Assembly: GCA_964478755.1 (NCBI GenBank)
Contig: CAYZJP010000006.1
Coordinates: forward strand, 5,350 to 69,349
Source: an uncultured Klebsiella sp.
Lineage (GTDB): Bacteria; Verrucomicrobiota; Verrucomicrobiia; Limisphaerales; SXTU01
Direction: 5' to 3'
DNA length: 64,000 nt
Shown here: positions 7,463 to 56,200 of the stretch, piece after piece
Numbering within the stretch: position 1 is the first letter of the stretch
Layout: each line of letters opens with the position of its first letter
Notes under the pieces: model-generated
What the model was told of the DNA's origin: nothing
The model's input: only the letters and a program-made list of their open reading frames with translations
Databases searched by the model: none
Translations under genes and position numbers: made by a program

Positions 7463-7759
7463 TCAGTCCAGCTTGAAGCTCTCGATGTATTGCTTCCGCA
7501 CGGACTCATCCTGCTGCGGCTGTTCGGTGCGGCGCAGGACGGAGTTCTCCAGCACGAGCGCGTCCATGTCCGACGCCATGAAGCAGCGGTAGGCATCCTC
7601 GGGCGTGCAGACGATCGGCTCGCCCCGGATGTTGAAGCTGGTGTTGATGATGACCCCGCAGCCGATCTGGCGCTTGAACTCTTTCATCAGCCGCCAGTAG
7701 CGACCGTGCCGCTCCTCGTCCACGGTCTGAAGGCGGGCGCTCATGTCCACATGTGTGAT
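7463..7759 (-). pseudogene. Detached 3' fragment (last 98 codons + stop) of a carbamoyltransferase gene
   Basis: The C-terminal part of ORF 7463..8425 reads ITHVDMSARLQTVDEERHGRYWRLMKEFKRQIGCGVIINTSFNIRGEPIVCTPEDAYRCFMASDMDALVLENSVLRRTEQPQQDESVRKQYIESFKLD. This matches the last 98 aa of 8917..10767 at 93 of 98 positions. Homology stops at about 7759, and the rest of that ORF is an alternate frame of the AT3 gene. Confidence 0.85.
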
Positions 7760-7788
7760 GATTGACAATGCAAAACTTTCCCATCCCG

Positions 7789-8892
7789 TTAACTCGGACC
7801 GAAGCGGTCCCGGAGCCAGCGGCGGACGTGTCCGGTATGCCGCTCGAAACAATAATAAATCCCCCAAGAGGCGGCGAGCACCGCAATCAGCTTGAGTATC
7901 AGGCTGACACACGAAGCCAAATCCACCTGTCTGCGACCGGGGAAATAGAATACCCATAAGCCCAGCATCACGTAGTGCGTGAGATAAAGTGTGTAGGAAA
8001 AATCCGCCCAGAACTTTCCGTGCCGTTCCAAACGGCTCACGGATTCCGAACCCGGTTGCCAAGCAGACAACACATGGACCATCAGGACAAAACCACTTGC
8101 CAGAATCAAGACAGACGTAGCCATATTCGGAATCCACCTCTGCCAAATAGTGATATTCACGGAAACGGTCCCGCTGTTCAACTGAGTCAAGACCATTCCG
8201 ATGCCGGCCAGCAAAAGTCCAACCAGCAACAAGCAGACGCGTCGCGTGACCGCCCCCAATTGATGGGCCACCGCCCCTGATAGCCAGCACCCGAGGTAAT
8301 GGACAGCGCCCATTTGGCATAGCACCGCCAAACTTGTGGCGGTCAACATAAGAAAAGCGACCCGCGCGTGGAACGATCCCGCGGTCGTGGTCGCAAGCGC
8401 GCAACCCCACAGAACATAAAACCACATTTCAAACGCCAGAGACCATAACGGCGCGTTGCCGCCAAAGACTCCGATAGTGGAAAACACTCCTTGCAATCCG
8501 AACAGATTGCCCGCCAACTCCATTCCCGATACTTCTCTTCGCTGGAGTAACGTGGCGAGCGCGGTCAGCCCCAAGGCAGGAACTAGGGGCACGTAAATAC
8601 GTGTGACGCGATCCAGCCAGTAAGCCGAGACATTGAAACGACCTTCGACAGCGCGCTGCAAAGACCGACCCCCGACCAGATAACCACTCAAAACAAAAAA
8701 TACCACAACGGCTTCGTGTCCAAGACGGGATAAGGCAAAAGCCAGTGCCGTCATCCAGCCTTTGTCATCCGAAGACAACGCGCCATATTCCAAGAAATGT
8801 GCCCCCCTGACGTGGCAGAGGAGCACCTGAAAGGCAGCCAAGAAACGGATCCAATCCAGCCAGTAATATCGATTTGTCTCAGAACAGTGCAT
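7789..8892 (-). CDS. Acyltransferase family 3 (AT3) membrane O-acyltransferase
   Basis: 367 aa, polytopic, with N-terminal AT3 signature YWLDWIRFLAAFQVLLCHV. No fused SGNH domain. Confidence 0.85.
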   Translation of the reverse strand: MHCSETNRYYWLDWIRFLAAFQVLLCHVRGAHFLEYGALSSDDKGWMTALAFALSRLGHEAVVVFFVLSGYLVGGRSLQRAVEGRFNVSAYWLDRVTRIYVPLVPALGLTALATLLQRREVSGMELAGNLFGLQGVFSTIGVFGGNAPLWSLAFEMWFYVLWGCALATTTAGSFHARVAFLMLTATSLAVLCQMGAVHYLGCWLSGAVAHQLGAVTRRVCLLLVGLLLAGIGMVLTQLNSGTVSVNITIWQRWIPNMATSVLILASGFVLMVHVLSAWQPGSESVSRLERHGKFWADFSYTLYLTHYVMLGLWVFYFPGRRQVDLASCVSLILKLIAVLAASWGIYYCFERHTGHVRRWLRDRFGPS

Positions 8893-8916
8893 TGAGAATC
8901 TCCGTGAGTCGGATAA

Positions 8917-10767
8917 CTAATCTAGTTTGAAGCTCTCGATGTATTGCTTCCGCGCGGACTCGTCCTGCTGCGGCTGCTCGGTGCGGCGCAGGACGCAGTT
9001 CTCCAGCACGAGCACATCCATGTCCGAGGCCATGAAGCAACGGTAAGCGTCCTGGGGGGTGCAGACAATCGGCTCGCCACGGATGTTGAAGCTGGTGTTG
9101 ATGATGACCCCGCAGCCGGTCTGGCGTTTGAACTCCTTCATCAGCCGCCAATATCTTCCATGCCGCTCCTCGTCCACAGTCTGGAGGCGCGCGCTCATGT
9201 CCACGTGCGTGATCGCCGGCAGCGTGGAGCGCGGCACATTCACGCGCTTGCGAAGGTCGGGATCTTTCATCAACTGCCGCTGCTCCGATGTGAGCGGAAG
9301 CCAGTGCTCTTTCTTCACGTCGGCCACCATGAGCATATAGGGCGACTCGCGGTCGTGGTCGAAATACTTCTGCACGTCCTCGATGAGCACACACGGGGCG
9401 AAGGGCCGGAAGCTCTCGCGGAACTTGATGCGCAGGTTCATCTGCGACTGCATCGCCGGGCTGCGGGCATCGCCGATGATGCTGCGCGCCCCAAGCGCAC
9501 GCGGGCCGAACTCCATCCGCCCGCTGAACCAGCCGACGACTTTTTCGGAGGCCATCTCCTGCGCGACGGCTTCGAGCAGCGCGGGCTCCTGCTCGTAAAA
9601 CGTGTAGCGGACTTGCTTCCCGTCGAGGAAGGCGCGGATTTCCTCGTTCGAGAACTTCGGGCCGAGCAGCGAGCCTTTGAGCGAATCCTTCCGCGCGGCG
9701 ACGTGCGTGCGCGGCTGGTCGAGCAACTGGTGATGGACGAAGAGCGCCGCGCCCAGCGCGCCGCCGGCATCGCCGGACGCGGGCGTGGCGAACACGTCGT
9801 CGAAGATTTTTTCCCGGAGCAATTTTCCGTTTGCGACGCAGTTGAGCGCGACGCCACCGGCGAGGCAGAGATTTTTGCTGCCGGTCAGTTCCTTCGCATG
9901 CCGGGCCATGCGCAGGACGACCTCCTCCGTGACTTTCTGAATCGAGGCGGCAATGTCCATCTCTCGCTGCGTGATGGCAGTTTCGGGATTGCGTGCAGGA
10001 CCGCCAAAGAGCGAGGCGAACTTGTCGTTCGTCATCGTGAGGCCCTGACAGTAGTTGAAATAGCTCATGTCCATCGCGAGCGAGCCGTCGGGCTTCACGT
10101 CCACGAGGTTCTTGAGGATGGTGTCCACAAAGCGCGGCTCGCCGTAGGGCGCAAGGCCCATGAGCTTGTATTCGCCGGAGTTGACCTTGAAGCCACAGAA
10201 GTAGGTGACTGCGCTGTAGAGCAGGCCGAGCGAATGCGGGAAATGCAGTGTCTTGAGAATTTTGATCTTGTTCCCCTGGCCGTGGCCGATGGTCGCCGTG
10301 TCCCATTCGCCGACGCCGTCGAGCGTGAGGATGGCCGCGTCCTCGTAGCGCGACGGGAAGAAGGTGCTGGCCGCGTGCGACTCATGGTGGCCGGTGAACG
10401 CGATGCGCTTCGTGTAGCGCCCGCCAAGCGCCTTCCGAATCTCGCGCGGAAGGTGCAGCTTGGTTTTCAGCCACAACGGCATCGCCATGAGAAAGGATTG
10501 GAAGCCTTCCGGCGCGAAGGCGAGGTAAGTCTCCAGCAGACGGTCGAACTTGAGCAGCGGCTTGTCGTAGAAGACGACGTAGTCGAGTTGTTCGGGCATG
10601 AGGCTAGCTTCGCGCAGGCAGTAGTCCACCGCGTGCGTGGGGAACTCGTGGTCGTGCTTGATGCGCGTGAAGCGTTCCTCCTGCGCGGCGGCGACAATGT
10701 CGCCGTCCACGACCAGCGCGGCGGCGCTGTCGTGGTAGAACGCGGAGAGGCCGAGGATGGCGGGCAT
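8917..10767 (-). CDS. Carbamoyltransferase (NodU/CmcH/SxtI family)
   Basis: 616 aa with GLSAFYHDSAAALV, HHESHAAS and C-terminal VIINTSFNIRGEPIV. Full-length copy of the sequence repeated at 7463 and 6328. Confidence 0.9.
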   Translation of the reverse strand: MPAILGLSAFYHDSAAALVVDGDIVAAAQEERFTRIKHDHEFPTHAVDYCLREASLMPEQLDYVVFYDKPLLKFDRLLETYLAFAPEGFQSFLMAMPLWLKTKLHLPREIRKALGGRYTKRIAFTGHHESHAASTFFPSRYEDAAILTLDGVGEWDTATIGHGQGNKIKILKTLHFPHSLGLLYSAVTYFCGFKVNSGEYKLMGLAPYGEPRFVDTILKNLVDVKPDGSLAMDMSYFNYCQGLTMTNDKFASLFGGPARNPETAITQREMDIAASIQKVTEEVVLRMARHAKELTGSKNLCLAGGVALNCVANGKLLREKIFDDVFATPASGDAGGALGAALFVHHQLLDQPRTHVAARKDSLKGSLLGPKFSNEEIRAFLDGKQVRYTFYEQEPALLEAVAQEMASEKVVGWFSGRMEFGPRALGARSIIGDARSPAMQSQMNLRIKFRESFRPFAPCVLIEDVQKYFDHDRESPYMLMVADVKKEHWLPLTSEQRQLMKDPDLRKRVNVPRSTLPAITHVDMSARLQTVDEERHGRYWRLMKEFKRQTGCGVIINTSFNIRGEPIVCTPQDAYRCFMASDMDVLVLENCVLRRTEQPQQDESARKQYIESFKLD

Positions 10768-10775
10768 CGTGATGG

Positions 10776-12056: not shown

Positions 12057-12317
12057 CGTGCGAACGCGGGGCAAGACTAGTTGGACGCTAGACTGGAAAG
12101 CAAGCTCATCGCACTGATTTGTCAGCGGCCGCTTCTCCAATGTATTGGCCGTGCAGGGCATCGCAACCCAGCCGACTCATCGCCCTTCCCGGCCCACTGT
12201 CATCCACGGATTTGCGGTCGGCAGGGTTTCACCACCAATAGCCAAGCCACTCCCGTCACCTGGCGGCAGGGGCAGGCGCTGTCGTTTCCAGAAATCTCCG
12301 ATGGACAGGCGTCAGTT

Positions 12318-13451: not shown

Positions 13452-13461
13452 GGTAAACGCT

Positions 13462-15249: not shown

Positions 15250-15257
15250 GAGCGCTT

Positions 15258-16145
15258 TCAGGCGTGAGGCCGAGTGGCGACGAGGTCGCTTCCCCCGGCC
15301 GTTTGAACGGCAGTGCCGGGCGTTTTGCCCGCAAGGTAATCCTTCACTGGCTGCAAACGAAATCCTTGCTCCAACAGAAACCTTTGGGCCGCGCCGGGTG
15401 TTATCCCGCTCTCAGGCCGTTTTTCCGCCCAGTCGTTGAACTCGAACACAACCACGGGTGCGGGTTCCTGACGCAGCAAACCGACAGCCCCCTGAAACAC
15501 GCCGAGTTCGAAACCCTCCACGTCAACCTTGATTAAATCCACCGATGATAATCCGTGCCGCGCGACTGCTGTGTCCAAACTCATGGTTGGCACCGCCACT
15601 CCGCTCCCACCGAACCGACAAGCAAGGGAACCCATTCCGAATTTAGCCTCTGGGGCGTCGTGGAACATGATGGTGTCCCCCTCCTTTTGTGTGACGGCGT
15701 AGTTTAGCGGGGTAAAATTGGCCAGCCGGTTCACCGCTGCGTTCGCGGACAGGTATTGGAAGATGGCAGGTGAAGCTTCGAATCCCAAGACCCGTCCATC
15801 CGGACAGCACGCTTGGGCCGCCCACAGCGACATGGCTCCGATGTTCGCCCCGACATCCAAGAAAGTTCCTGCCCGCCGCAGTGCCCGCTGGATTACTGCG
15901 CAGGTATCGCGGTCATAGCAGCCGTCTGTGAGCAGATGAAACGCTATCGGCTCGAGTAATGAAGGCGCCCGATAAATCAGCCCGGTCGTTTGAATCTCCA
16001 CAGATCCTGCCGACATCACCAAGTTTGTTATTGCACGGGCCAGCTTTGTCCTGCCCGGCAGGCGGTGGGGCATGCACCGTAAAAGATACAGCCAGCGAGG
16101 GATGGGTTGGCAGGCTGGAAATCTTATGGCTGAGGAACATTCCAT
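15258..16145 (-). CDS. FkbM family methyltransferase
   Basis: Motifs FLDVGANIGAMS, LGFEASP and IKVDVEGFE. Confidence 0.85.
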   Translation of the reverse strand: MECSSAIRFPACQPIPRWLYLLRCMPHRLPGRTKLARAITNLVMSAGSVEIQTTGLIYRAPSLLEPIAFHLLTDGCYDRDTCAVIQRALRRAGTFLDVGANIGAMSLWAAQACCPDGRVLGFEASPAIFQYLSANAAVNRLANFTPLNYAVTQKEGDTIMFHDAPEAKFGMGSLACRFGGSGVAVPTMSLDTAVARHGLSSVDLIKVDVEGFELGVFQGAVGLLRQEPAPVVVFEFNDWAEKRPESGITPGAAQRFLLEQGFRLQPVKDYLAGKTPGTAVQTAGGSDLVATRPHA

Positions 16146-26104: not shown

Positions 26105-27253
26105 CTAGGCGGACTTTGCACAGTTCAACATGCGCAGCACGGGCGCGAACTGCGTCTCATAATTCCACTCATCAAGGATGCGTTGCCGCCCGCTGGCCCG
26201 TGCGGCTTCGGCCTCCACCGGGTGGTCGAGAAACCAGCTCACCGCCCCGGCGATGCTCCGGCCATCAGTCGGGTCGCAGGTGCGAGCGTAGCCCGGTTCC
26301 ACGAACAATGTGCGCCAGTCCGGAAGATCGGACACGAGTAGATTCAATCCGCAGGCGAGGTAGTCAAACGGCTTGTTCGATGCCCCGGTCATCGCGCGCA
26401 TGTTCAGGTCGCCGCTCGCAGCCGGCATGAAGGCGAGGCCGATGTCTGCACGAGCACAGTAGGGAAGCAAGTCGTGCCGACGACTGAACGCCCCGAGAAA
26501 TTTCACTCGTCCCGTTAAGTTCAGCCGCCCGGCTTCCGCCAAGAACTCCGTGATATAGTTGCGGTTGCCCTCGGTGGTGTATCCCGCGATTTCTAAGCTG
26601 ACGCGGTCTGGCAGTCGTGTGAGGGCGTGGACAACAGAGATTGGTAAGCGAAGCGCGTTGATCGAGCCGTGGTAAAAGAGCGTGCATCCGCCAACTCGTT
26701 TCCGTAATGGAAGCACATCGCGCTTGCCCGGGCAGTTCCAAACCGTCAGCACGGGGCACGCCGGGCGAACCGTCTCAGCAAATACTCGCGCCCGCTCCGC
26801 GTTGGGGAGCACGACGGCGGCGGCGCGCTGGCAGAGCCGGCGGCGCGCGCCAAGGATGCGGCGGAAGAAGGGCGTGGCATCGTTCACCGTCGGCGAATCA
26901 TGCTCATGGTAAATCACGCGCCGGCCTGGCAGCCGGCCGGCCAGCCAGGCCGCCGGGCACGTGAGAGGTTCGGACGCGTAAATCCATCGCGCACCGCTCC
27001 GCCACGAACGCCACCAAGTCCACAGGCAGAAGCCGGTGAAGTGCGCCTTCTGCCGCCAGCCGGGACCGGAGTAACGCCACCTCTCCGTGCGAATGCGCGG
27101 GTGCGGCTCAAATTGAAACGCATCCGCCTCGCCCAAAGCCCCGCTGCCGAGGAAGAGCACTTCCCAGCCGCAGTCAGCGAGAATCCGCGAGCTGTGCTCC
27201 AGAGGAGGATAGCCCGCCGGGTTGGTGTATTGGACATAGAGGATGCGCCTCAC
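26105..27253 (-). CDS. Glycosyltransferase (GT4-like)
   Basis: ORF 26105..27280. Start set to the GTG at 27253 (VRRILYVQYTNPAGYPP), which forms a GTGA overlap with the AT3 stop. Shows the GT-B C-terminal half. Confidence 0.7.
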   Translation of the reverse strand: MRRILYVQYTNPAGYPPLEHSSRILADCGWEVLFLGSGALGEADAFQFEPHPRIRTERWRYSGPGWRQKAHFTGFCLWTWWRSWRSGARWIYASEPLTCPAAWLAGRLPGRRVIYHEHDSPTVNDATPFFRRILGARRRLCQRAAAVVLPNAERARVFAETVRPACPVLTVWNCPGKRDVLPLRKRVGGCTLFYHGSINALRLPISVVHALTRLPDRVSLEIAGYTTEGNRNYITEFLAEAGRLNLTGRVKFLGAFSRRHDLLPYCARADIGLAFMPAASGDLNMRAMTGASNKPFDYLACGLNLLVSDLPDWRTLFVEPGYARTCDPTDGRSIAGAVSWFLDHPVEAEAARASGRQRILDEWNYETQFAPVLRMLNCAKSA

Positions 27254-28374
27254 GCCGGCTGCCTCCGCGCGGTGAACCATCCGTTCACGATCCTCCGGAC
27301 TTCCTCCGTGCGCCGCTCAAACAGCCACCAGACCAGATGTGATCCCGCGAGCGTGAGCGCCACGACGCCGGCATAGACCGCGAAGCCCACCGCGCCGGGC
27401 TGCCATTGCCGGCCTTGCAGCACGCCGAAGGAAAGGAAGGCGAGGAACGGGAAGTGAAAGAGGTAGAGCGTGTAGGAGGTGTTGCCAAAATACCGCGCCG
27501 GCCCGCGCCACCAACCGGTCCCGCCCGTGTCCGCCGCCAGCCGCGGCAACGTGGCCGCAAAGGCTGGCGCGATCCAGTAGTCCGCGCCCGCCAGCCCGCG
27601 CCACCGGTTCCACAAGAGCACGCCGCCCAAGCCAAGCAGCGCGCCCCAGAACACCGGAGCCGAGCGCGCCAGCTTTGCAATGCGCGAACGGCTGAACACG
27701 TAGGCCGCATATCCCGCCAGCCACATCAGGCCTGCGAGCAGAAAACCAACCGGCAGGAACACACCCGCCGCCAGCAGCAGCACGAGGAAGAACAGCCGTC
27801 CTCGCACGGGAGTCGTTCGGTGGCACATCGCGAATCCGAGGGGAAACATCAGATAATACCAGAACTCGTTCGCGAGCGACCACAGCGGGCCGTTGCTCCC
27901 GAAGGTCCGCACGACGATGGTTTGCAGAAAGCAGACATTGCCGAGCAGGGCGAGGACGCCGCTGTCCGCCGGCTCCGCCGTCGAGGGGCCGGAATGGATT
28001 CGCTCGTAATAGCGGCCATCGTAGCCCGCCCCGCCGCTCAACGTCCCGCCGGCCAGGTCCCAGCCCAGCGTCAGCGCCAGCGCCGGCAGCAGCACCAGCC
28101 AGAGCCGCGTCATCCGCCGCAGCGCGTAGTCCCCGAAGCTCCACCGGTTCGTCGCGAACCGCTCATGCACCGCGCCGCCGATCAGAAAGCCGCTCAGGAC
28201 AAAGAAGATGACCACGGCCTGGTGGCCGAAGCCCGTCAGCCCGTAGAAGGCGTCCGTCACGACGTTGCGCTCGGACACGGCGAAGTGTTCCACGAAGAGA
28301 AACGCGCGCAGGTGGCCGAGCAGGACCGCCAGCGCCGCCATGCCCCGCACGAGGTCAAGCTTGTCGAGCCGCAT
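27250..28374 (-). CDS. Acyltransferase family 3 (AT3) membrane O-acyltransferase
   Basis: 374 aa, MRLDKLDLVRGMAALAVLLGHL, polytopic, with no SGNH domain. G+C is much higher than in the paralogue at 7789. Confidence 0.85.
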   Translation of the reverse strand: MRLDKLDLVRGMAALAVLLGHLRAFLFVEHFAVSERNVVTDAFYGLTGFGHQAVVIFFVLSGFLIGGAVHERFATNRWSFGDYALRRMTRLWLVLLPALALTLGWDLAGGTLSGGAGYDGRYYERIHSGPSTAEPADSGVLALLGNVCFLQTIVVRTFGSNGPLWSLANEFWYYLMFPLGFAMCHRTTPVRGRLFFLVLLLAAGVFLPVGFLLAGLMWLAGYAAYVFSRSRIAKLARSAPVFWGALLGLGGVLLWNRWRGLAGADYWIAPAFAATLPRLAADTGGTGWWRGPARYFGNTSYTLYLFHFPFLAFLSFGVLQGRQWQPGAVGFAVYAGVVALTLAGSHLVWWLFERRTEEVRRIVNGWFTARRQPA

Positions 28375-29194
28375 GGGGTTGGGGGGATTCCCGCCGCGCC
28401 ACGACCTCGCCGTAGTTCTCGATCCGTCGCACCGGCGCGCCGTCGAGATGCTCGACCACGTAGCCGTGCCGGGCCAGCCGGTTTAGCAGGGAATCGCTGC
28501 TGGTGCCGCAGTAATGCCAGTTGTAGGGATGCACTTCTATGTAGATTCGGCGCGGGGATCGAGCGGCATCACGCAGCAGGGTATCCGCACCTTCGAGAAC
28601 CTCTTCTTCGAAGCCCTCCACGTCCACCTTGAGGATGTCCACGCGACGGTTTGCAAAATAGGTATCCAGCCGCATCACTGGCACTTCATGGGAGCCGGGT
28701 GTGCCTGCGGGCACGATCTGGTTCTGAATATCCTTCCCCCCGCTGAAGCTGATGCGTCCGTCCTGCGCGCCGACCGCCGCGTTGACAACCGTCAATTGCG
28801 ACTCCACTCCGTTGAACTTTGCATGAGTTTCCACCCATCTGTGATTCGCTGGATCAGGCTCAAACGCGATCACCCGCCCACCAGCTCCCACGCGTTTGGC
28901 TAACGCCACGGCATAAAGCCCAATGTGCGCACCCACATCTGCCACGGTATCGCCAGCCCGAAGATGGGACATGACGTGCCGCCACACGTCCGGCTCGTAG
29001 CTTTCGCCAAGATTGCGAAAGCGCGGCGCGATCAACATCCGGTCGGTGCCGTTGAGGTTGCGCTCCAGTCCTCGACGACCCAGACCGTTGACGATCCGGT
29101 CGTAAGCCGGCCGCGCCGCGTTCCACAACCAGTCCGCACGCTTCAGCCACACGCTGTGCCGCAGCCGCACACACGCCTGTTCAATCGCGTTCAT
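28355..29194 (-). CDS. FkbM family methyltransferase
   Basis: Motifs VADVGAHIGLYA, IAFEPDP and LKVDVEGFE. Confidence 0.85.
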   Translation of the reverse strand: MNAIEQACVRLRHSVWLKRADWLWNAARPAYDRIVNGLGRRGLERNLNGTDRMLIAPRFRNLGESYEPDVWRHVMSHLRAGDTVADVGAHIGLYAVALAKRVGAGGRVIAFEPDPANHRWVETHAKFNGVESQLTVVNAAVGAQDGRISFSGGKDIQNQIVPAGTPGSHEVPVMRLDTYFANRRVDILKVDVEGFEEEVLEGADTLLRDAARSPRRIYIEVHPYNWHYCGTSSDSLLNRLARHGYVVEHLDGAPVRRIENYGEVVARRESPQPHAARQA

Positions 29195-48868: not shown

Positions 48869-48875
48869 GGCGACC

Positions 48876-50627
48876 TCAATTCTTCCGCGTGACGATCCAG
48901 TCACCCAGCACGAGCACGTCCATCTTCGTGCGCAGGAAGCAATCGAGCGCTTCCTCGGGCCGGCAGACCACGGGCTCGTTCTCGTTGAACGACGTGTTCA
49001 GCACCATCGGCACACCGGTCAGCGCACGGTAGCTGTCGATGAGCCGGTGATAGCGCGGGTTGGTTTCCTGGTGGACGGTCTGCAACCTGCCTGAACCGTC
49101 CACGTGCGTGGTGGCCGGCACAAGCGCGCGTTTCTCAGCGCGGACTTGGAAAACTTCCATCATGAAGGGCACGTCGTCCTCCTGCTCAAACCACTCGGCC
49201 ACGTGCTCGCGCAAGATGCTCGGCGCAAACGGGCGGAAGCTCTCGCGGCGTTTGATCTTGAGGTTGAGAATGTCCTTCATGTCCGCGCGGCGCGGGTCGC
49301 CGAGGATGGAGCGGTTGCCCAGCGCGCGCGGCCCCCATTCCATGCGGCCTTGGAACCAGCCGATGACTTTGCCTTCAATGATGGCCTGCGCCGTGCGGCG
49401 GCAAAGTTCCCCTTCGTCGGCAAGATGCTCAGTGGTGCAACTCTCCGCGCGGATGTCCGCCGCCTTGCGGTCGAGAAGCATCTTCATCTCCGCTTCAGTC
49501 GCGCTCGGACCCCAGTATCCGTGGTCCATGGGCAGGCGTGTTTTCACATCGCCGAGCCGGTTGGCGACGACAAACGCGGAGCCGATGGCACCGCCAGCAT
49601 CGCCCGCCGCAGCGGGAAGATACATCCGCTTGAACGGTGACTTGAGGTAAATCTTCCCGTTTGCGACGGAGTTCATCGCGCAGCCGCCGGAAAGCGCGAG
49701 GTTCGGGCAGCGATACTTCGCGTGCAACGTGTGGAGCAGCGCGAAGAACGTCTCCTCATACATCGCCTGCGCCGATCGGGCCAAATCCTTGTGCCGCTGG
49801 TCGAGCGGCTCGCCGGCTTTGCGCGCAGGGCCGAGAAGTTTTTCCAGCTCGGGGCTGAAGACCGTGCCAATCTCGGGCGAGCAGTTGTCCCACGTGTAGT
49901 GGACGTTCTCGCGGTGGTGCCGGAAGAACTCCAAGGCGAGCTTGAACGTGCCGTCGAACTGCACACGCACGATTTGCCGCATCTGCTCCAGAAACTTTGG
50001 CTCACCGTAGGGTGCGAGACCCATGACCTTGTATTCGTCGCCGTAATGCGGAAAGCCGATGAACTGCGTGATGGCCGTGTAGAAGAGGCCCAGTGAGTGG
50101 GGGAAGTAAACCCGTCCGTCAATATGGATGCTCCCGCCGCGCCCCATGCCCCACGCCGAGCTGGCGAAATCCCCGAAGCCGTCCACCGAGAGGCACACCG
50201 CCTGGTCGAAGTTCCCGACGTGAAACGCGGAGGCGAGGTGCGCGAGGTGATGCTCGACGTGGTGCATCTGCGCACGCAGCGTCTCGCCCGGCAAGGCCGC
50301 ACGCACCGAGTCTTCGAAGGACGACGCGCGGCGGATGTTGCGGATGCGATTGAGGATCAACTTCGGGCTGGGCATCCGACGCAGCGCGTAGGCCACGCGG
50401 CGGAAATTGTTCACCGACGGATCACGGTTGATGGCGACGTGCTCGACGTCCGCGAGCTTGAGACCGTCCTCGCGCAACACGTAGCGGATCGCCTCCGACG
50501 GCATACCTGACCAGTGTTTCACGCGGCGGAAGCGCTCCTCCTCCGCGCACGCGACAAGCTTGCCATCACGCACGAGGCAAGCAGCGGAATCACCGTGAAA
50601 CGCGTTCAGTCCGAGAATGACAGCCAT
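48876..50627 (-). CDS. Carbamoyltransferase (NodU/CmcH family), second paralogue
   Basis: ORF 48876..50696 trimmed to the ATG at 50627 (MAVILGLNAFHGDSAACLV). Contains HHLAHLASAF and VLNTSFNENEPVV. It lacks the C-terminal tail found in the copy at 8917. Confidence 0.9.
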   Translation of the reverse strand: MAVILGLNAFHGDSAACLVRDGKLVACAEEERFRRVKHWSGMPSEAIRYVLREDGLKLADVEHVAINRDPSVNNFRRVAYALRRMPSPKLILNRIRNIRRASSFEDSVRAALPGETLRAQMHHVEHHLAHLASAFHVGNFDQAVCLSVDGFGDFASSAWGMGRGGSIHIDGRVYFPHSLGLFYTAITQFIGFPHYGDEYKVMGLAPYGEPKFLEQMRQIVRVQFDGTFKLALEFFRHHRENVHYTWDNCSPEIGTVFSPELEKLLGPARKAGEPLDQRHKDLARSAQAMYEETFFALLHTLHAKYRCPNLALSGGCAMNSVANGKIYLKSPFKRMYLPAAAGDAGGAIGSAFVVANRLGDVKTRLPMDHGYWGPSATEAEMKMLLDRKAADIRAESCTTEHLADEGELCRRTAQAIIEGKVIGWFQGRMEWGPRALGNRSILGDPRRADMKDILNLKIKRRESFRPFAPSILREHVAEWFEQEDDVPFMMEVFQVRAEKRALVPATTHVDGSGRLQTVHQETNPRYHRLIDSYRALTGVPMVLNTSFNENEPVVCRPEEALDCFLRTKMDVLVLGDWIVTRKN

Positions 50628-50777
50628 GCGCCGCGGAAAGAAATCAGGCCAAGCTGCCGCCCTTGGTCGGGAGCCGGAAAACTCCGGCCAGACCATGCTG
50701 GCGCACCGCGTTCGATTGTCTGTTTCGCGACACGAGGTCGGAAACCGTCTGCCCTGCCCGGCGAACCGGGCGAAAAG

Positions 50778-51308: not shown

Positions 51309-51344
51309 AAACGACAGGCCCGCACTCAAGCAGATCATCACTTA

Positions 51345-51366: not shown

Positions 51367-51439
51367 CTCTCCAACGACACCACTTCCCAGCCAAAGTGAA
51401 GCCGAGGCCTGCACCCCCATCGAGAACCGCGCTCGGCTA

Positions 51440-52573
51440 CTACTTCAGTGCCGCGCGGATCACCGGCTCGAAGATGTCCGCCTGCCGCATGAAACCGAGG
51501 TCATTCGCGTGCGAGGCGTCCGTCGCGCCGTCGGCATCGTCGCCGTAAAGATGGTCGCCGCCGATGTAGTGCAGCTTCGCAACACCGTCCTTCTTCAACT
51601 GCTCGTAGGCGGCCCGCAACGCGGCGTGGTTGTCGTCGTGGAATTTTTTCTTCGCGGGCGTGATCCAGTCATTCGTGAAGCGCCGGTCCTCGACGAGCAC
51701 GATGGGGGTGTTGGGCCGCGACGCGCGGAGCTGTTTCACCAGCGGGATGCACTTGGCCGTCACATCCGCCGGTCCCATGTTCGGCAGGCAGTCAATCACA
51801 TACACGGCGGCGTCAATCTCCGTCAGCAGCTCGCCCACGGCGGCGTCCATGCGGCCGTTGCCGGAGAAACCGACGTTGATGACGGGCCGGTCGAAACGCC
51901 GGCCGAGAATCGCCGTATGCACCATGCCGGGCCGCGACGCACACGCGCCGTGAGTGATGGACGTGCCGTAGAAGATGATCGGCTTCTCCGTGCGCGGCGC
52001 GAGGCCCTCGAACTTCGCGCCCGCCGGCACGCCGATTTCGAGCGACTCGATGCCGTTGTAGAGCGGGAGATAGGCCGCGTATTCGCGTTCGCCGGGCGCG
52101 AGATCGCTGATGATGGTGGCCTCGACCTTCGGCGAGCTGGGCCGCGTGACGTTGACCCACTTCCATTTTTCGTCGGTGTCGCGCGCGTAGAGGTCGAGGC
52201 CGCTGACGCCGGTGGCGGGCATGTGCGGCATGGCGAGGTTCGTCTTGGAGAGCGTGTAGCGCGTGTAGATGGCCTTCGCGTCCGTCTTGAAGCGCACCAT
52301 CATGCCGGCGCTGTCGCGGCTCAGGCTCCAGACGGCGGACGTGACCTTGCCCTCGGCCTTGGCGGGCAGGCGGTCGAACCACCGCTTGCGCTCCTGATCG
52401 GCCCAGCCACGGCCCTCGACGCCCCACTTCGTCACGTCATGCCATGCAGCATCGGCGGGAATCGCATTCGCAGCAGCTTTGGGCGGCGCGGGTTTCACCG
52501 CCGGCTTGGGCGCGGGCTGCTGGGCAACAACCGTGGTGGCGAGGACGAACGCGAGGAAGAGGGCGGATCTCAT
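51440..52573 (-). CDS. Secreted SGNH/GDSL-type carbohydrate esterase
   Basis: ORF 51440..52657 trimmed to the ATG at 52573 (MRSALFLAFVLATTVVAQQ, signal-peptide-like). Blocks IIFYGTSITHG and FSGNG. Confidence 0.75.
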   Translation of the reverse strand: MRSALFLAFVLATTVVAQQPAPKPAVKPAPPKAAANAIPADAAWHDVTKWGVEGRGWADQERKRWFDRLPAKAEGKVTSAVWSLSRDSAGMMVRFKTDAKAIYTRYTLSKTNLAMPHMPATGVSGLDLYARDTDEKWKWVNVTRPSSPKVEATIISDLAPGEREYAAYLPLYNGIESLEIGVPAGAKFEGLAPRTEKPIIFYGTSITHGACASRPGMVHTAILGRRFDRPVINVGFSGNGRMDAAVGELLTEIDAAVYVIDCLPNMGPADVTAKCIPLVKQLRASRPNTPIVLVEDRRFTNDWITPAKKKFHDDNHAALRAAYEQLKKDGVAKLHYIGGDHLYGDDADGATDASHANDLGFMRQADIFEPVIRAALK

Positions 52574-52649
52574 GGCGAGGGCGGAATGTTTCTGAACTGG
52601 GTTCACGCGAGGAGTCTTGGCCGGGCGCAGGCCGGGCGTCAACGCCGTG

Positions 52650-52715
52650 TCACTCAAACAGCCCCTGAATCTCCTCCCACGTCAGGTTGTCCGCGAGGGT
52701 TTCCTCACCGCCGAG
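52650..52715 (-). pseudogene. Detached copy of the last 21 codons + stop of the SNF2 helicase gene
   Basis: Encodes LGGEETLADNLTWEEIQGLFE*, identical in protein to the end of 53293..56454. There are 7 nucleotide differences in 66 nt and all are silent. Confidence 0.8.
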
Positions 52716-52784
52716 GGCAGTGGACTCCGCTGCTGCTTCGGAGCCGGACTTGCTTGCAGTGAGAGGCATCGCTAGTTTCGGAGC

Positions 52785-52988
52785 ATGAAGTTTCGCTTGT
52801 TGGTCACGCTGGATGAACAGACGCACCGTTGGTCGGCGGTTTTCCCCGAATTGCCCGGCTGTGCCACGGCGGGCGACACTGAGGCGGAGGCTGTAGCGAA
52901 CGCCAAAGAAGCGCTCGACCTGTGGTTCGAGCCGACCCCCGTGAAACTGGCCAAAAGTGCCAAGCTGTTGGAACTCGCGGTGCCGTGA
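52785..52988 (+). CDS. hicB: HicB-family antitoxin (short, UPF0150-type, no DNA-binding domain)
   Basis: 67 aa: MKFRLLVTLDEQTHRWSAVFPELPGCATAGDTEAEAVANAKEAL. Confidence 0.8.
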   Translation: MKFRLLVTLDEQTHRWSAVFPELPGCATAGDTEAEAVANAKEALDLWFEPTPVKLAKSAKLLELAVP

Positions 52989-53202
52989 GCCGCGCTTTCC
53001 AATCCGCAACGCGAAGGAGGTCGTGCAGGTTCTCCGTCGGCACGGCTTCGCGTTGGTGGGTCAGGCCGGAAGCCATCAGAAATGGCGGCATCCCAACGGA
53101 CGGCAGGTCATCGTGGCGATGCACGGGAGCAAGCCCATCCCGATTGGCACGCTCAAGAGCATCATCGAAGGCAGTGGCTTGGGCGTGGAGGAGTTTCGGT
53201 AG
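52957..53202 (+). CDS. hicA: HicA-family mRNA interferase toxin
   Basis: KEVVQVLRRHGFALVGQAGSHQKWRHPNGRQVIVAMHGSKPIPIGTLKSII. The GTG start at 52957 overlaps hicB, and the exact start is uncertain. Confidence 0.8.
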   Translation: MPSCWNSRCREPRFPIRNAKEVVQVLRRHGFALVGQAGSHQKWRHPNGRQVIVAMHGSKPIPIGTLKSIIEGSGLGVEEFR

Positions 53203-53292
53203 TTTGGCAGCGGGTGATCAAAGCAGTGTGGAGCAGCAAGGCCAGGGACTGAGCTTTGCCAAGCCAGAAAGAGTGAAGTTGTCCCGGCCAAT

Positions 53293-56200
53293 TCACTCAA
53301 ACAACCCTTGAATTTCCTCCCAAGTCAAATTGTCCGCGAGGGTTTCCTCGCCGCCGAGCGTGGCCTTGATGATCGCGCGCTTCTTTTGCTGAAGGGCTAA
53401 AATCTTCTCCTCCACGGTGCCGCGTGCGATGAGCTTGTAGCTCGTCACCACGCGGGTTTGGCCGATGCGGTGCGCGCGGTCAGTGGCCTGGTCTTCCACT
53501 GCGGGGTTCCACCACGGGTCGAAGTGAACGACGGTGTCCGCGCCTGTGAGTGTGAGGCCCACGCCACCGGCTTTCAGGCTGATGAGGAAGACGGGAATCT
53601 TCGCGTTGCCCTGAAACTTCTCCACCACCGCGCCTCGGTTCGTGGTCGAGCCGTCGAGGTAACAGAACTCGATGTTGTCCGCCGCGAGCTTGTCCTTCAG
53701 CAGCGCGAGCATGGTGGTGAACTGGCTGAAGACGAGCACGCGATGCCCGCCGTCAATGGCCTCCTCCAGCAGTTCGCCGAACATCGCCAGCTTGCCCGAG
53801 CTGTCGTCGGTGAACTCGGCGTCCTCTATCTTGAGAAGCCGCAGGTCGCAGCAGATTTGCCGCAGCCGCAGCAGCGCATTGAGCACGACCATCTTGCTCT
53901 TCGCGAGGCCCTGCGCACCGACGGCGTCCATGACTTCCTTTTTGCTGACGGCGAGAACCTGCTTGTAAATCTCCGCCTGGTCGTCGGTGAGTTCGCAGTA
54001 GGAAACTTGTTCGAGCTTCGCGGGCAAATCTTTCGCCACCTCGGTCTTGAGTCGGCGCAGAATGAAGGGCCGCAGCCGCCGTCCGAGCCGCGCCGGCACG
54101 GCCTCGTCCTTGTCACGCGTGATGGGCTGCTCGTAGCGCTCCTTGAAGTCCGCCGCCGAGCCGAGATAGCCGGGCATGAGGAAGTCGAAGATGCTCCAAA
54201 GGTCGAGCACCGAGTTCTCCATCGGCGTGCCGGTGAGCACGAGCCGGTGCGTGGTCTGCACAGCCTTCACGGCCTGCGAGTTCTGCGTCTGGCGGTTCTT
54301 GATGTGCTGCGCTTCGTCGAGCACGAGCGTGTCGAACTCGAACTCACGATACTTCTCCGCGTCGCGCCGGATGAGCGCGTAACTGGTGATGACAAGCTGG
54401 CTCCACGCAACTTCATCGAAGCGCGCGTGGCGGCTCGCGCCGTGCAGCGCGACGGCCTTCAACTGCGGCGTGAACTTCTTCGCCTCCGCGAGCCAGTTGA
54501 AGACAAGCGAGGTCGGGCACACGATCAAGACCGGGCCGGAGAGCTTGCGGTTCGTGTGACACGAGTGGAGGAACGCGAGCGTCTGGAGCGTTTTGCCAAG
54601 ACCCATTTCGTCCGCGAGAATGCCCCCGAATTTGTTCTCGCGGAGAAACTGCAACCACGCGACGCCCTGCCGCTGATACGGACGCAACACGTCTTCGAGC
54701 GCGCCGAGCGGCGGGCAGGTGAGCTTTGTCTGGCCGCTCTGCTGCGACGCGCGTTCACGCCAGCCAGCCGCAGCTTGCACCTGCCAGCCAGGCTGCTGCC
54801 GAAGCGTGGCATCGAGGAAGCCCGCCTGCACGTCGCTGAAGCGGTAGCCGCGCGCGTGCTGCTGCGGCGCGCAGTCTCGCAGCACTTCGTTGAACTCCTC
54901 CAGCGCGCCCGTATCAATCAGCGCGATGCGGCCGTTCTTCAGGCGCGTCGTGCCGTTGCCGGAGAGAATGAGCCGCTGGATGTCGGCGGCGGAAAACTTT
55001 TCGCCGTCCGCCGAGCCGAGCGACATCTCGACATCAAACCACCGCTCGCCCGACGGACGAATCTCGAAGCGCGGTTCCAGCCGCTCGAAGTTCTTGGTCG
55101 TGCTGTGCTGCAACCGCTCTTCCAGCGAAACGTCCCATTCCTTCTGGAGACGCGGGTAATCCTTCGCGAAGAAGCGCACGACCGCGCTTTCGCCGTGGAG
55201 ATTCCAGCGCCCTTGCGCGTCGGGACCGTTGAAGCCCGCGCGCCGCATCCGTTCCGCCGCCGCGACCTCGGCACTGAAGTCACGCGTCGAGTAGCGCGTG
55301 GTGCACTTCGGGTCCGGCAGCCAGAGCGATTCGTCCTTCGCGGTCACGCCCACGGTCATGATGCGCGGGCCGTAAGCGCACTGGAGTTGGGCCTGCACCT
55401 GCGCCAGACCGCCGTTGAGCGCGAGGATGAAGCGCGGCGACTGCGGCTCCAGTGTGAATTCATCAATGCCGAAGTTCGCGTCCACCTCGCTCTCGGCTTC
55501 GAGCACGACGAGCTCCTGACTGAGGAAGAGCGGCACGCGCGTGCGCGGCAGTTTCATCGGTGCTCGGAACAGCTCGCGCCACTGCTTCGGCAGGCCCACC
55601 GGCTCCAGCGAGTCACCGCGAAACGCCCAGAGCGACTCGCCCGCGATGAGCGTGGGCGCGCGAAGATTCGACGGGAGGTTCAGGCGAATCTCCCCGGACG
55701 TTTCCAGCGTGACCTCGACGGGCACGCGCCACGAGGTCGCGCCGATGGCGAGCGGCTGGCCGCGTCCGAGCGCCACGCGCGGGTGCCCTCCGAGCGCGTC
55801 GAGCAGTTGCGTCAACTCGACGAGATTGAGCATGAGGCCGCCGGGCGTTTCGTCGCCGGCGAGTTCCTCGGCCTTGTCGAGCAGGCGCGCGTCCTCGGGC
55901 GAGAGCGCGAAGGGCTGGTTCATCGGCAGCGCGCTCAACGGCGCGCGGCCCTTGGCCCACTTGCCCTCGAACGTGACCATGACTTTCCCGCGCTCGATGC
56001 CTTGCGCGAAAGTCGGCGGGAGGATGACGGAGATTTCGAGCGGCTGGCCGTTGGCGGCGCGCTTCAGCTTCGGCCCCGGCTGCGGCTCCGGCTCGCGCGC
56101 GACGGACCGAGTCGTTCCGAACCGTGCAGGCAGTGGTGTCGCCGTGTCGCTCCCACGCGGGGCGGGCTTGTTGCTCAAAATATGATGCAGCCCCACCGCC

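Follow-up and report, generated by a model that had tools for sequence, protein, structure and literature searches.

Detached gene ends beside accessory genes at two loci of a Limisphaerales genome as probable marks of cassette stacking by recombination

Two loci at which accessory genes adjoin a conserved gene were identified in the window (the whole 64-kb stretch of DNA that was analysed). At the first, where all features lie on the minus strand, the conserved anchor is a carbamoyltransferase (CT) gene (8917..10767, 616 aa; Pfam Carbam_trans_N and Carbam_trans_C), the product of which shares 85-96% amino acid identity with those of Limisphaerales relatives. Its attached 3' end (98 codons and TAG, 8917..9213) was assigned by alignment to a family of direct repeats (D1/D2). 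It is followed by a first cargo gene, encoding a membrane acyltransferase of the AT3 family (7789..8892; Pfam Acyl_transf_3), with its ATG 24 nt past the CT stop codon and a GC3 of 0.62 compared to 0.86 for CT; other AT3 genes occupy this site in relatives. A stretch of 29 nt (joint A, 7760..7788) runs from the AT3 stop codon to the first base of CT stub 2, a detached copy of the last 98 codons of CT with a TGA stop (7463..7759), which aligned with the attached end over 293 nt at 90% identity (32 of 297 nt differing). Joint A is an illegitimate joint, with no parental sequence for comparison. The second cargo gene, that of an FkbM-family methyltransferase of 310 aa (6529..7461; Pfam Methyltransf_21), starts 1 nt past the stop codon of stub 2. 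A shorter detached copy, CT stub 3 (the last 32-33 codons and TGA, 6328..6430), is 88% identical to the attached end and precedes the third cargo gene, for a methyltransferase of the Methyltransf_24 class (5385..6308; Pfam), whose ATG lies 19 nt past the stub's stop codon, a spacing equal to that in relative L005. The locus ends with a resident full-length gene for an sxtJ-like membrane protein (4917..5357, 146 aa; weak Pfam SxtJ match), the right-hand conserved flank, and with a gene for a small DUF5989 membrane protein (4715..5023; Pfam DUF5989 and synteny), the third of a conserved CT-sxtJ-DUF5989 triad, whose true start is probably internal to the listed ORF.

The homology of every detached 3' copy was found to stop exactly at the stop codon, which varies between TAG and TGA among the CT copies, and the cargo genes start 1-24 nt beyond it. 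The three cargo genes of the CT locus are mutually unrelated by Pfam, and the GC3 of the cargo is 0.59-0.68 compared to 0.76-0.86 for the flanking genes. The repeats of this locus were also seen to flank genes that would alter surface polysaccharide.

A third scar at the CT locus had been overlooked in the initial annotation. The first 33 codons of an sxtJ-like gene (sxtJ' stub, 6427..6525, minus strand), with homology to sxtJ beginning exactly at the ATG, are joined in frame to CT stub 3, forming a chimeric ORF of 65 codons (6328-6525) with a 5' half from sxtJ' and a 3' half from stub 3. This ORF was observed to possess an ATG and the donor's translation-initiation context. The junction (joint B) lies in a microhomology, GTGCTG(N)TGCT, common to sxtJ codons 34-37 and CT codons -33 to -30; microhomology was assessable at this one of the three window joints. 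The sxtJ' stub matches sxtJ of relative L166 at 94 of 99 nt, compared to only 73 of 99 nt for the resident sxtJ. In L166, CT, FkbM and sxtJ were found on one contig as a single cassette, its FkbM protein (P0121) sharing 95% amino acid identity with that of the window; FkbM and the sxtJ' stub are together 95% identical to L166, and the resident sxtJ matches at 74%. As judged from these identities, the sxtJ' stub and FkbM arrived together.

At the second locus the anchor is a SNF2_assoc/SNF2 helicase gene (53293..56586, minus strand; 1097 aa as listed; Pfam families on orthologues) with 88% nucleotide identity to that of L081. Its attached end (last 21 codons and TGA, 53293..53358, minus strand) and a detached copy of the same length (SNF2 stub, 52650..52715, minus strand) enclose a hicBA pair on the plus strand. 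This comprises a hicB antitoxin gene (52785..52988, 67 aa; Pfam HicB_lk_antitox) and a hicA toxin ORF (52957..53202, 81 aa from the GTG at 52957; Pfam HicA_toxin), which belongs to a widespread 72-aa family and in which a 1-nt deletion relative to homologues puts the canonical GTG start at 52985 out of frame. The spacer between the stub and hicB (52716..52784, unstranded), which includes joint C, is collinear and alignable with the equivalent spacer in L170 and L177/L180. On its other side, the stub lies within 2-5 nt of DNA upstream of a GxDLY/SGNH esterase gene (51440..52573, minus strand; Pfam), the native downstream neighbour of SNF2 by synteny in L081 and L163. As this DNA is also present in those two relatives, the stub is likely to be the ancestral gene end. 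The attached end is the outlier among the nine copies compared (53-58 of 63 nt to the others, with 53-60 of 63 nt shared among all nine), and its GC3 is 0.64 compared to 0.85 for the whole gene. The alignments thus bear out the initial annotation in placing accessory DNA between attached and detached 3' ends at both loci.

As the genome was derived from a metagenome, these repeats could in principle have arisen by concatenation of co-existing strains' alleles with different cassettes through words common to the CT or SNF2 ends; such words, of 32 and 39 nt, do exist, and Logan contigs break at repeats. Against this, every novel joint was recovered inside unitigs of two independent metagenome runs (X1 and X2) with zero differences, including joints A, B and C, which link sequences without a common word longer than 6 nt. 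Depth was uniform, at about 6-7x over cargo and flanks, and not additive when the CT body was compared with each cargo gene and the flanks (about 6-10x), with double-depth unitigs only at words common to two copies. The same architecture was also present in unrelated assemblies made by different pipelines (L177-179 and L170-172, three samples each). The structure is not an assembly artefact, and a chimera of this type is extremely unlikely.

Comparison of the copies by codon identified 25 synonymous and 5 nonsynonymous differences between CT and stub 2, 9 (in sense codons) and 3 between CT and stub 3, and 7 and 0 between the two SNF2 ends, which are identical at 59 of 66 nt. The pooled 41 synonymous to 8 nonsynonymous differences agree with the earlier description of direct repeats that differ mostly silently. 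Under neutral decay of the detached copy, binomial tests gave p = 9e-7, 0.02 and 1e-3 for the three comparisons and 3e-8 when pooled, and in-situ duplication followed by neutral decay was rejected on this excess of silent differences. If a gene end were duplicated in tandem, with the copies diverging afterwards and unrelated DNA inserted between them, direct repeats in tandem would result, and two relatives hold features of that kind: 45-nt intergenic repeats beside hicBA in L174 (98% identical), which look like a local target duplication, and a tract of about 90 nt identical between the two copies in L014. For the window we nevertheless give this explanation hardly any credence, on account of the silent excess, the mutually unrelated cargo genes, the sxtJ' stub that matches another lineage at 95% and the resident gene at 74%, and stub variants that are common to other species. 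Most amino acid variants in the CT stubs (E, V, KKH) also occur naturally in relatives, with three private substitutions at otherwise invariant residues in stub 2, and the three CT ends of the window are mutually 88-92% alike, the same level as between species of the clade. The detached copies are xenologous, as capture anchored on homology from diverged lineages predicts; this part of the original proposal is therefore supported. At the CT stop codon, divergence jumps from 4.4% to 10.4% (Fisher p = 4e-4), indicating separate histories for the cassette and the anchor end. Stub 2 and the attached CT end are equally close to the CT end of L166 (both 264 of 294 nt); because stub 2 is no closer, its co-transfer with FkbM from an L166-like donor would need an additional recombination event.

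Examination of relatives showed that both sites are insertion hotspots, being empty or holding other single cassettes or a different toxin-antitoxin pair. Most Verrucomicrobiota have CT, sxtJ and DUF5989 side by side, and sxtJ directly adjoins CT in most relatives. In the closest clade the CT|sxtJ junction is empty in L006 and L007 and otherwise holds differing single cassettes (five different AT3 genes, a Methyltransf_24 gene, or a 2.7-kb insert including an MBOAT gene); the single cassette of L005 encodes a homologue of the Methyltransf_24 cargo with 64-74% amino acid identity. At the SNF2|SGNH junction, L081 and L163 hold a HEPN/nucleotidyltransferase pair, and L173 has hicBA at the SNF2 junction without a stub. 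The CT|sxtJ site matches the pattern of the minimal mobile elements of Neisseria, in which different whole-gene cassettes without mobility genes lie between two conserved genes and are exchanged by homologous recombination in the flanks. Those elements are described as clean allelic replacements, stacking with duplicated gene-end stubs not being known as a defining trait.

The footprint itself recurs at the same two gene families in L004, L113, L143 and L177-180, in agreement with the previous suggestion that its presence at two loci is no coincidence, and further scars were found in L004, L113, L143, L014 and L022, the last as a GT2'::'Glf joint. Self-BLAST of the 64 kb found no other short-range direct repeats of this kind, and the CT and SNF2 repeats are therefore not background. 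With no more than these two loci showing the footprint within 64 kb, the general route of gene gain in this organism that the initial annotation put forward is at most a candidate. Three SNF2 ends lie in tandem in L177-179, where the near stub retains an intact stop codon and carries 9 synonymous and 3 nonsynonymous differences, and the far stub is decayed with its stop codon lost. The emphasis of the initial annotation on 3' ends holds for CT and SNF2 and proved too narrow, given the 5' stubs of sxtJ in the window, of CT in L014 and of cas4 in L167.

That annotation had also noted the lack of a resident recombinase, and indeed no integrase or transposase was found in the window by Pfam analysis of about 50 ORFs, nor were tRNA genes, Rfam features or att-like or attC-like sites present. 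A recombinase acting in trans is nonetheless conceivable, in which case the repeats would be the attL/attR cores of small non-autonomous integrative elements that insert at the 3' ends of genes and accrete in tandem, as CIMEs do beside ICEs. Accretion of this type at the 3' end of fda in Streptococcus thermophilus, and other elements that provide a surrogate 3' end, give direct repeats flanking cargo, three-repeat tandem arrays and a restored gene; both a tyrosine recombinase and a fixed att core are required there. The repeat-cargo-repeat layout, the three-repeat arrays of the window CT locus and L177, the insertion at gene ends with the reading frame restored and the discrete stub-hicBA-stub unit of L170 are all reminiscent of such elements. 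Unlike in these, repeat length differs between events at one target (at CT, 98, 32 and about 13-20 codons; at SNF2, 21, 44 and about 19-27), and neither a recombinase nor a core could be detected in the window. Similarity spans the whole stub with scattered silent differences rather than a short identical core, and the joints share no common motif, with boundaries free of hairpins and inverted repeats. At joint B, two genes are fused at a microhomology of 6 nt. In addition, the conserved hicBA sequence ends at the coding region, and elsewhere the pair is flanked by unrelated local repeats (the cas4 5' end; the 45-nt intergenic repeat), therefore showing no common att. The site-specific form of capture that had been offered as an alternative is contradicted by these features, and an enzyme in trans is considered improbable.

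It is even less probable that selection maintains the stubs for a function of their own, such as encoding translated peptides or serving as recombination substrates by which genes modifying surface glycans would be lost and gained in a programmed manner. Intact reading frames and stop codons, the start codon and initiation context of the chimeric ORF and the predicted surface-polysaccharide role of the flanked genes are in keeping with such a function. The private substitutions in stub 2, the decay of stubs in L004, L143, L170 and L177 and a lack of deletion or excision variants in the two runs speak against it.

The gene-end stubs are probably marks of cassette stacking by homology-anchored and illegitimate recombination (sequential displacement), and not of a mobile-element enzyme. 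This reading rests on the xenologous copies, the hotspots, the existence of a donor-type allele, the one microhomology joint, the varying stub lengths, the lack of a recombinase and the decay gradient in the array of a relative. Both loci would exchange whole-gene cargo between diverged lineages, with the conserved flanking gene as homology anchor. In an occasional event, an incoming fragment made up of the 3' part of the anchor gene and new cargo would be integrated by one homologous crossover within the anchor gene and one illegitimate, microhomology-mediated joint, which would fall inside the recipient's own anchor copy and not beyond it, a process named homology-facilitated illegitimate recombination (HFIR) and resulting in sequential displacement. 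The anchor gene would be kept whole, with the donor 3' end substituting for that of the recipient, while the old 3' end would be shifted downstream as a silent stub still joined to its former downstream sequence. Repetition would stack cargo units, each with a stub behind it and the newest beside the anchor gene. What we infer here is the succession of events in the window, the way in which the DNA entered and the dependence on RecA. As the available relatives are about 88% identical, breakpoints within SNF2 or CT could not be placed. Since the CT|sxtJ junction is a spacer of 5-12 nt within an operon, only joints back inside the anchor gene would spare both neighbours, which would make scars common. 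Inserts do begin a few nucleotides past the stop codon, as first reported; rather than targeting, this probably reflects operon packing and selection, because only joints sparing both flanking genes would survive.

A possible, though doubtful, alternative is Campbell-type integration, in which a circle of cargo and one gene-end copy, arising when the two repeats of a unit already in place recombine or when a fragment circularises illegitimately, enters by a single RecA-mediated crossover in the resident gene end and regenerates an attached and a detached copy. The final topology would be identical, including the b|a joints sxtJ'::'CT and GT2'::'Glf (L022), and Jackson et al. 2009 (PMC2935791) put forward a model of this type for the tip arrays of Rhs. 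Three lineages that differ in their downstream genes share a collinear stub-spacer-hicBA unit, and in L170-172 a stub-hicBA-stub unit with no SNF2 gene nearby, its hicA 5-6 nt from the second stub, could be a copy of a circle of more than unit length; this arrangement is not explained by left-anchored HFIR at SNF2. However, no circular form or excision joint was found in the two runs holding the genome (although rare variants are lost from contigs), RecA acts poorly on homology of 63-100 bp, a small non-replicating circle has no evident route from cell to cell, and the decay gradient of L177 fits ordered displacement at least as well.

The low frequency of HFIR also speaks against sequential displacement by this route. 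In laboratory systems it occurs orders of magnitude less often than ordinary double crossover (PMC5361080), and four scars in a 64-kb window are therefore many, unless selection against joints in tiny spacers strongly enriches them. HFIR of transformable bacteria (de Vries & Wackernagel 2002; Prudhomme et al. 2002; Meier & Wackernagel 2003; as cited in later work) likewise combines one homologous anchor with one joint at a short GC-rich microhomology and traps foreign DNA beside the anchor; it was defined in the laboratory with selected markers, and natural footprints that retain duplicated anchor ends have seldom been documented.

Sequential displacement arrays have been described for the T6SS effector-immunity clusters of Vibrio cholerae (Kirchberger et al. 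2017, PMC5361080). As in the window, the upstream anchor is constant and a new module lies beside it, the old one being shifted downstream and in some cases taking along the previous gene's 3' end; integrases play no part, HFIR was proposed, and scarred events are less common than clean homologous replacement. T6SS cargo consists of toxin/immunity pairs, with orphan immunity genes thought to be selected, whereas the cargo here consists of glycan-modification enzymes and a toxin-antitoxin pair, and the displaced piece is the silent end of a housekeeping-type gene including its stop codon, leaving the protein unchanged. Rhs (PMC2935791) and CDI systems also hold dissociated downstream units, each with a remnant of the conserved core, and decoupled histories of core and tip; orphan cdiA-CT/cdiI modules are attributed to Poole et al. 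2011 as cited in PMC5361080, and for Rhs recombination with laterally acquired alternatives, possibly through circular intermediates, was proposed (PMC2935791). The variable part in those systems is the C-terminus of the same protein, so that the toxin changes, while in the window the anchor protein is preserved and separate genes vary.

A process of this kind is thus already known from toxin loci and is here found at ordinary genes. As a by-product, each stub would constitute a second arm homologous to the same gene. If this holds, cargo and stub could enter any genome with that gene by plain homologous recombination, regardless of the downstream sequence.

Two loci of the window were found to carry detached copies of gene ends (stubs) interleaved with accessory genes. 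The initial annotation had described such copies for the 3' ends of a carbamoyltransferase gene (CT) and an SNF2 helicase gene, which proved correct in all particulars and was extended here by a 5' stub of an sxtJ-like gene. At the first locus, entirely on the minus strand, CT (10767 to 8917) is followed by an AT3 acyltransferase gene (8892 to 7789), a CT stub of 98 codons plus stop (stub 2, 7759 to 7463), an FkbM methyltransferase gene (7461 to 6529), a 65-codon chimeric ORF (6525 to 6328), a Methyltransf_24 methyltransferase gene (6308 to 5385), a full-length sxtJ-like gene (5357 to 4917) and then DUF5989. In the chimeric ORF, a copy of the first 33 codons of an sxtJ-like gene (sxtJ') runs in frame into a copy of the final 32 codons of CT with their stop (stub 3). 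At the second locus, SNF2 (56586 to 53293, minus strand) is followed by hicA and hicB on the opposite strand (52785-53202), a 21-codon SNF2 stub plus stop (52715 to 52650, minus strand) and then a GxDLY/SGNH esterase gene (SGNH). The cargo consists of AT3, FkbM, Methyltransf_24 and HicBA, with a carbamoyltransferase and an SNF2 helicase as anchor proteins. In every stub the stop codon is the limit of homology, while the homology of the sxtJ stub starts at the ATG. No further short-range repeats of this type were found in the 64-kb window. An assembly artefact, by which the joints would be chimeric, is disfavoured: every novel joint was recovered in two independent runs, whose contigs have an even depth that doubles solely on words common to two copies, and this recurrence excludes an assembly chimera.

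The host is an uncultured, Pedosphaera-like member of the Limisphaerales (Verrucomicrobiota), with the top CT matches being metagenome-assembled genomes (MAGs) of that group at 85-96% amino acid identity; it is known from metagenomes only, and the window sequence is present in two rock-metagenome runs. Exact-protein look-ups for the window CT and SNF2 gave no match. Approximately 3.5-50.7 kb of the window forms one large surface-polysaccharide cluster, encoding many GT4 and GT2 glycosyltransferases, two asparagine-synthase homologues, a Wzy-like protein, DegT aminotransferases, epimerases, dehydratases, an ABC-2 exporter pair, nucleotidyl-transferases and a second carbamoyltransferase. This paralogue (48876-50696, minus strand, 606 aa) occupies the opposite end of the cluster, has no sxtJ or DUF5989 partner and shares about 70-73% nucleotide identity with CT in conserved blocks. 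Deeper in the cluster, a second AT3 (27250-28374) lies beside a second FkbM (28355-29194) on the minus strand (27250-29194), with a third FkbM at 15258-16145; no stubs were detected adjoining the second AT3 or the extra FkbM genes. The SNF2 protein (53293-56586, minus strand) matched the PADLOC models DpdE (E = 1e-173) and ZorD (E = 3e-122). Partner genes of these defence systems are absent nearby, and the matches probably stem from the helicase core alone. None of the small cargo ORFs matched a PADLOC model.

Comparison of the stubs with their attached counterparts was used to examine duplication in situ. Were the copies made in place and left to drift, approximately 60% of their differences would be expected to be nonsynonymous. 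Instead, 25 synonymous and 5 nonsynonymous codon differences separate CT from stub 2 (p = 9e-7), 9 and 3 sense-codon differences separate CT from stub 3 (p = 0.02), and 7 and 0 separate the SNF2 end from its stub (p = 1e-3), rejecting this null in each case. Pairwise identity among the three CT ends of the window is 88-92%, which is the between-species distance in the clade, and most of their amino acid variants are natural variants of relatives; the SNF2 ends behave likewise (nine copies from six genomes compared). Most of the divergence therefore arose at a time when each copy was a working gene end in a different lineage, and in-situ duplication is disfavoured. Selection on the stubs is also disfavoured; private changes number three in stub 2 and none or one in stub 3, numbers too small for an age gradient within the window. 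Both attached gene ends are in frame and full-length, with the stubs as their xenologues, and the attached SNF2 end is an outlier in composition and sequence among all copies. No clear closest pair emerged when stubs were compared with CT ends of relatives carrying the matching cassette (all pairs 85-93% identical), nor could a recombination breakpoint be resolved inside SNF2 by binned identity against five relatives at approximately 88% identity.

For one cassette a donor-type allele was found. The sole near-identical homologue of the window FkbM (95% amino acid identity) was found on contig L166, in the order CT 3' end, FkbM, sxtJ; as in the window, 1 nt separates FkbM from the CT stop. FkbM together with the sxtJ' stub is 95% identical to L166 at the DNA level (94/99 positions for the stub), whereas the resident sxtJ of the window matches at only 73/99, which indicates that FkbM and the first 33 sxtJ codons entered together from an L166-like locus. 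FkbM diverges from L166 by 4.4%, and the CT end, although a far more conserved sequence, by 10.4% (Fisher p = 4e-4), a step showing that cassettes and anchor-gene ends recombine independently; stub 2 and the attached copy stand at equal distances from the L166 CT end. The joint between sxtJ' and stub 3 (joint B) lies at GTGCTG(N)TGCT, common to sxtJ (GTC GTG CTG CTG CTC in relatives) and CT (GAC GTG CTG GTG CTG). This has the sequence of a typical microhomology joint and explains the in-frame fusion of the two genes. Of the three window joints, which also include those between AT3 and stub 2 (joint A) and within the spacer between the SNF2 stub and hicB (joint C), parental sequence for comparison was available for joint B, where the microhomology is GTGCTG.

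Direct adjacency of CT, sxtJ and DUF5989, with a CT|sxtJ spacer of 5-12 nt, was observed across Verrucomicrobiota and beyond; the triad is also tightly linked in Planctomycetota, Acidobacteriota and others (L001-L080), and its presumed function is to O-carbamoylate a glycan or lipid with the help of two small membrane partners. Within the closest clade, L006 and L007 have nothing in the spacer and the others have a single cassette there: one of five different AT3 genes, a Methyltransf_24 gene (in L005) or a 2.7-kb insert that includes an MBOAT gene. Among loci L001-L011 a scar of the gene's own end was found only in L004, where a decayed CT stub (ARKQYTERCKLA and stop, compared with VRKQYIESFKLD and stop) stands at the native distance to sxtJ. 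The CT loci of three MAGs labelled 'uncultured Klebsiella sp.' (L002, L004, L011) and one labelled 'Proteobacteria bacterium' (L008) share 89-94% protein identity with Limisphaerales, and the taxonomic labels of these records look wrong.

At the SNF2|SGNH junction, hicA and hicB are adjacent genes matching Pfam PF07927 (E = 5e-19) and PF15919 (E = 1e-9), respectively, from which hicBA is predicted to be a HicAB type II toxin-antitoxin (TA) module. Relative to L170, window hicA (52957-53202, plus strand) has a 1-nt deletion around 52984-52992, two codons past the canonical GTG (52985); its 81-aa ORF is kept only from an upstream in-frame GTG at 52957, with a 32-nt overlap with hicB, and the predicted toxin may be N-terminally altered or inactive. 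Two relatives (L081 and L163) carry a HEPN/nucleotidyltransferase pair where the window has hicBA, so that two different TA-like modules occupy one site. This MNT-type pair (L081:7354-8194, L163:3608-4911) is on the strand opposite SNF2 and is stubless. In both relatives homology to the window restarts 2-5 nt past the stop of the window SNF2 stub, indicating that the stub and SGNH form the ancestral junction, still intact. The contig with the closest hicA (L173) has the order SGNH, hicBA, ORF, SNF2 with no stub, and its SNF2 end is identical to the window stub at 60/63 positions. Sampling of the junction through SGNH found that gene in other contexts in several relatives. In a lake-water metagenome (run X5, window 52600-53430), an abundant relative (50-150x) was observed with hicBA at the SNF2 locus; its joints (53202 to 52650, 53212 to 53292 and 52626 to 52830) point to arrangements without the 80-nt spacer and/or the stub, and several alleles of this hotspot therefore appear to coexist in nature.

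Stacking was seen in a relative, on contigs from three samples (L177-179). Downstream of the orthologous SNF2 come, in this order, a 68-aa gene, a 44-codon SNF2 stub, a 172-aa gene, hicBA, another stub and an unrelated gene. The near, 44-codon stub keeps its stop and carries 9 synonymous and 3 nonsynonymous changes, while the far stub is heavily decayed (KATLGGKEPLVNNLMWEEL...) and has lost its stop, giving a clear decay gradient of the kind that displacement arrays have when their oldest unit is the most distant from the constant gene. The hicB-side stub, spacer and hicBA of L177 are collinear with the window, and its middle stub with a 17-nt flank resembles the attached SNF2 end and flank of the window. 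From these two likenesses, L177 looks like a window-like state plus one more displacement, the newest unit adjoining the gene.

A survey of about 2 Mb of fetched loci identified scars of this kind elsewhere. In L113 (7260-8174), a low-GC organism with an SNF2 homologue only approximately 49% identical, the last 26 SNF2 codons are duplicated around a pilin-like gene with a prepilin N-terminal motif, and a paralogous pilin-like gene follows, the stub lying between the two; the footprint consequently reaches a distant lineage. A decayed 143-nt SNF2 stub was found in L143. In L022 (716-915; 4846-5051), a diverged (87%) 3' stub of Glf, a UDP-galactopyranose-mutase-like gene, runs into a 5' stub of the next gene, GT2 (60 nt, 100% identical). 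This fusion is approximately 4 kb away, with the whole CT-sxtJ-DUF5989 module between, and makes another b|a chimeric joint. The initial proposal of capture at gene 3' ends was too narrow, since mirror-image scars exist at 5' ends: besides the sxtJ stub of the window, in L014 (8464-8640 vs 9995-10170) a gene of 396 aa has been inserted downstream of a CT 5' stub of about 58 codons, and three contigs (L167-169) have a cas4 5' stub. An approximately 90-nt tract of the L014 stub is identical to the full gene with diverged sequence either side, which suggests recent gene conversion between the copies. L167-169 (L167:1960-2700) hold a type V-B CRISPR locus in which hicBA (73% nucleotide identity to that of the window) is inserted between cas12b (C2c1) and cas4, with the cas4 stub beside it; the attached (MSEAPVQTNAGLEAQPVMPVRRLNNF) and detached (MSEAGIQTQGGLEIQPPMPVRRPDNF) copies are diverged.

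Two further contexts of hicBA, a very widespread and highly conserved TA pair, were bracketed by repeats. In L170-172 (L170:4672-5289), bare SNF2 3'-end copies of approximately 63 nt, 95% alike, stand on both sides of hicBA with no SNF2 gene nearby. The arrangement does not fit any simple model; possible sources are relocation of a unit and a circular intermediate. In L174-176 (L174:2208-2785), hicBA lies between 45-nt intergenic direct repeats with one base different, which resemble a local duplication of the target and so contrast with the xenologous window repeats. Repeats of local sequence bracket hicBA in four of the five contexts sampled, a hint that its insertion regularly duplicates the target.

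Site-specific capture, another proposal of the initial annotation, found no support. Site-specific elements (ICE/IME/CIME) have att repeats fixed in sequence and extent, whereas stub lengths differ between events at one target (98, 32 and approximately 15 codons at CT; 21, 44 and approximately 19-27 codons at SNF2) without a shared core, and no motif, hairpin or inverted repeat common to the joints was found. Integron cassettes likewise differ, having an attC hairpin with intI/attI, whereas the window cargo lies 1-29 nt from its neighbours without IntI and without inverted repeats at its boundaries. No tyrosine or serine recombinase was identified among the approximately 50 annotated ORFs of the window, in agreement with the claim that none is resident, and no integrase, transposase, tRNA or Rfam family was found anywhere in the 64 kb; promoter and terminator scans of the window gave nothing relevant. 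A recombinase encoded outside the window could still act in trans, although this is disfavoured, the joints having no core or motif in common. Coexisting deletion or excision variants were sought in the runs containing the genome, where only the window structure was seen at 96% likeness. Excision-like joints appearing at low stringency were rejected as CT genes of other organisms.

The evidence fits sequential displacement by homology-facilitated illegitimate recombination (HFIR), in which homology-anchored recombination between diverged alleles would be combined with one illegitimate joint. HFIR has extended homology to the resident anchor gene on one side and, on the other, an illegitimate joint of approximately 3-10 nt of usually GC-rich microhomology; by definition it also includes RecA and uptake of linear DNA (transformation or equivalent). 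The extended homology is seen here in the full-length, in-frame xenologous ends and in the donor-type CT-FkbM-sxtJ allele of L166. Such displacement has been proposed for the T6SS effector-immunity arrays of V. cholerae (PMC5361080) and for Rhs loci (PMC2935791). The layout of those arrays, a constant upstream gene and units each with its remnant, is found at CT (two stubs), SNF2 (one) and L177 (two); Rhs, CDI and T6SS arrays carry polymorphic toxin tips and cognate immunity genes, and the window cargo is neither. The minimal mobile element, with different cassettes between the same conserved genes and no mobility genes, is matched by both CT|sxtJ (empty, AT3 variants, Methyltransf_24, FkbM or the MBOAT insert) and SNF2|SGNH (hicBA or HEPN/nucleotidyltransferase). 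With a spacer of approximately 10 nt, illegitimate joints that spare both neighbours would fall back inside the anchor gene and create a stub. The apparent precision with which inserts begin at the stop codon, noted initially, is thus a result of operon packing. A Campbell-type variant via circular intermediates would give a final topology identical to that of HFIR, and is a less probable alternative to it.

Under HFIR-type displacement, a stub would also provide a second arm homologous to the anchor gene, by which cargo and stub could enter a naive copy through an ordinary double crossover in any downstream context. This would account for the hicBA-plus-stub unit being found upstream of three different genes. 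Two lineages have the unit next to SNF2 but differ in the gene that comes after it, and in one further case it is double-stubbed with no SNF2 nearby. On this basis hicBA with its SNF2 stub would be a self-homing cassette, with the CT|sxtJ glycan hotspot using the same device. That stubs are a working part of recombinase-free cassette mobility, with the unit or an excised circle homing and stacking through two arms that match one gene, is a tentative proposal, and we consider it rather unlikely. No directly applicable paper on TA modules between direct repeats or on double illegitimate recombination was found in the paper collection searched.

The footprint is real, recurrent and interpretable. 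The process is already known from displacement arrays and HFIR; here it involves non-toxin genes and silent stubs and leaves the anchor protein unchanged. Natural footprints of HFIR are seldom caught outside polymorphic-toxin loci, and the one described here is unusually legible: the copies differ at silent sites, an allele of the donor type exists, one joint lies in a microhomology and arrays in relatives have a decay gradient. It sits in ordinary genes of an uncultured member of Verrucomicrobiota, at a surface-glycan hotspot and a toxin-antitoxin hotspot, and the data show hicBA spreading together with a piece of a former neighbour. These findings suggest that accessory genes stacked behind conserved ones with no mobile-element enzyme contribute generally to gene gain, and that short detached in-frame copies of gene ends could serve as a searchable genomic signature of it.
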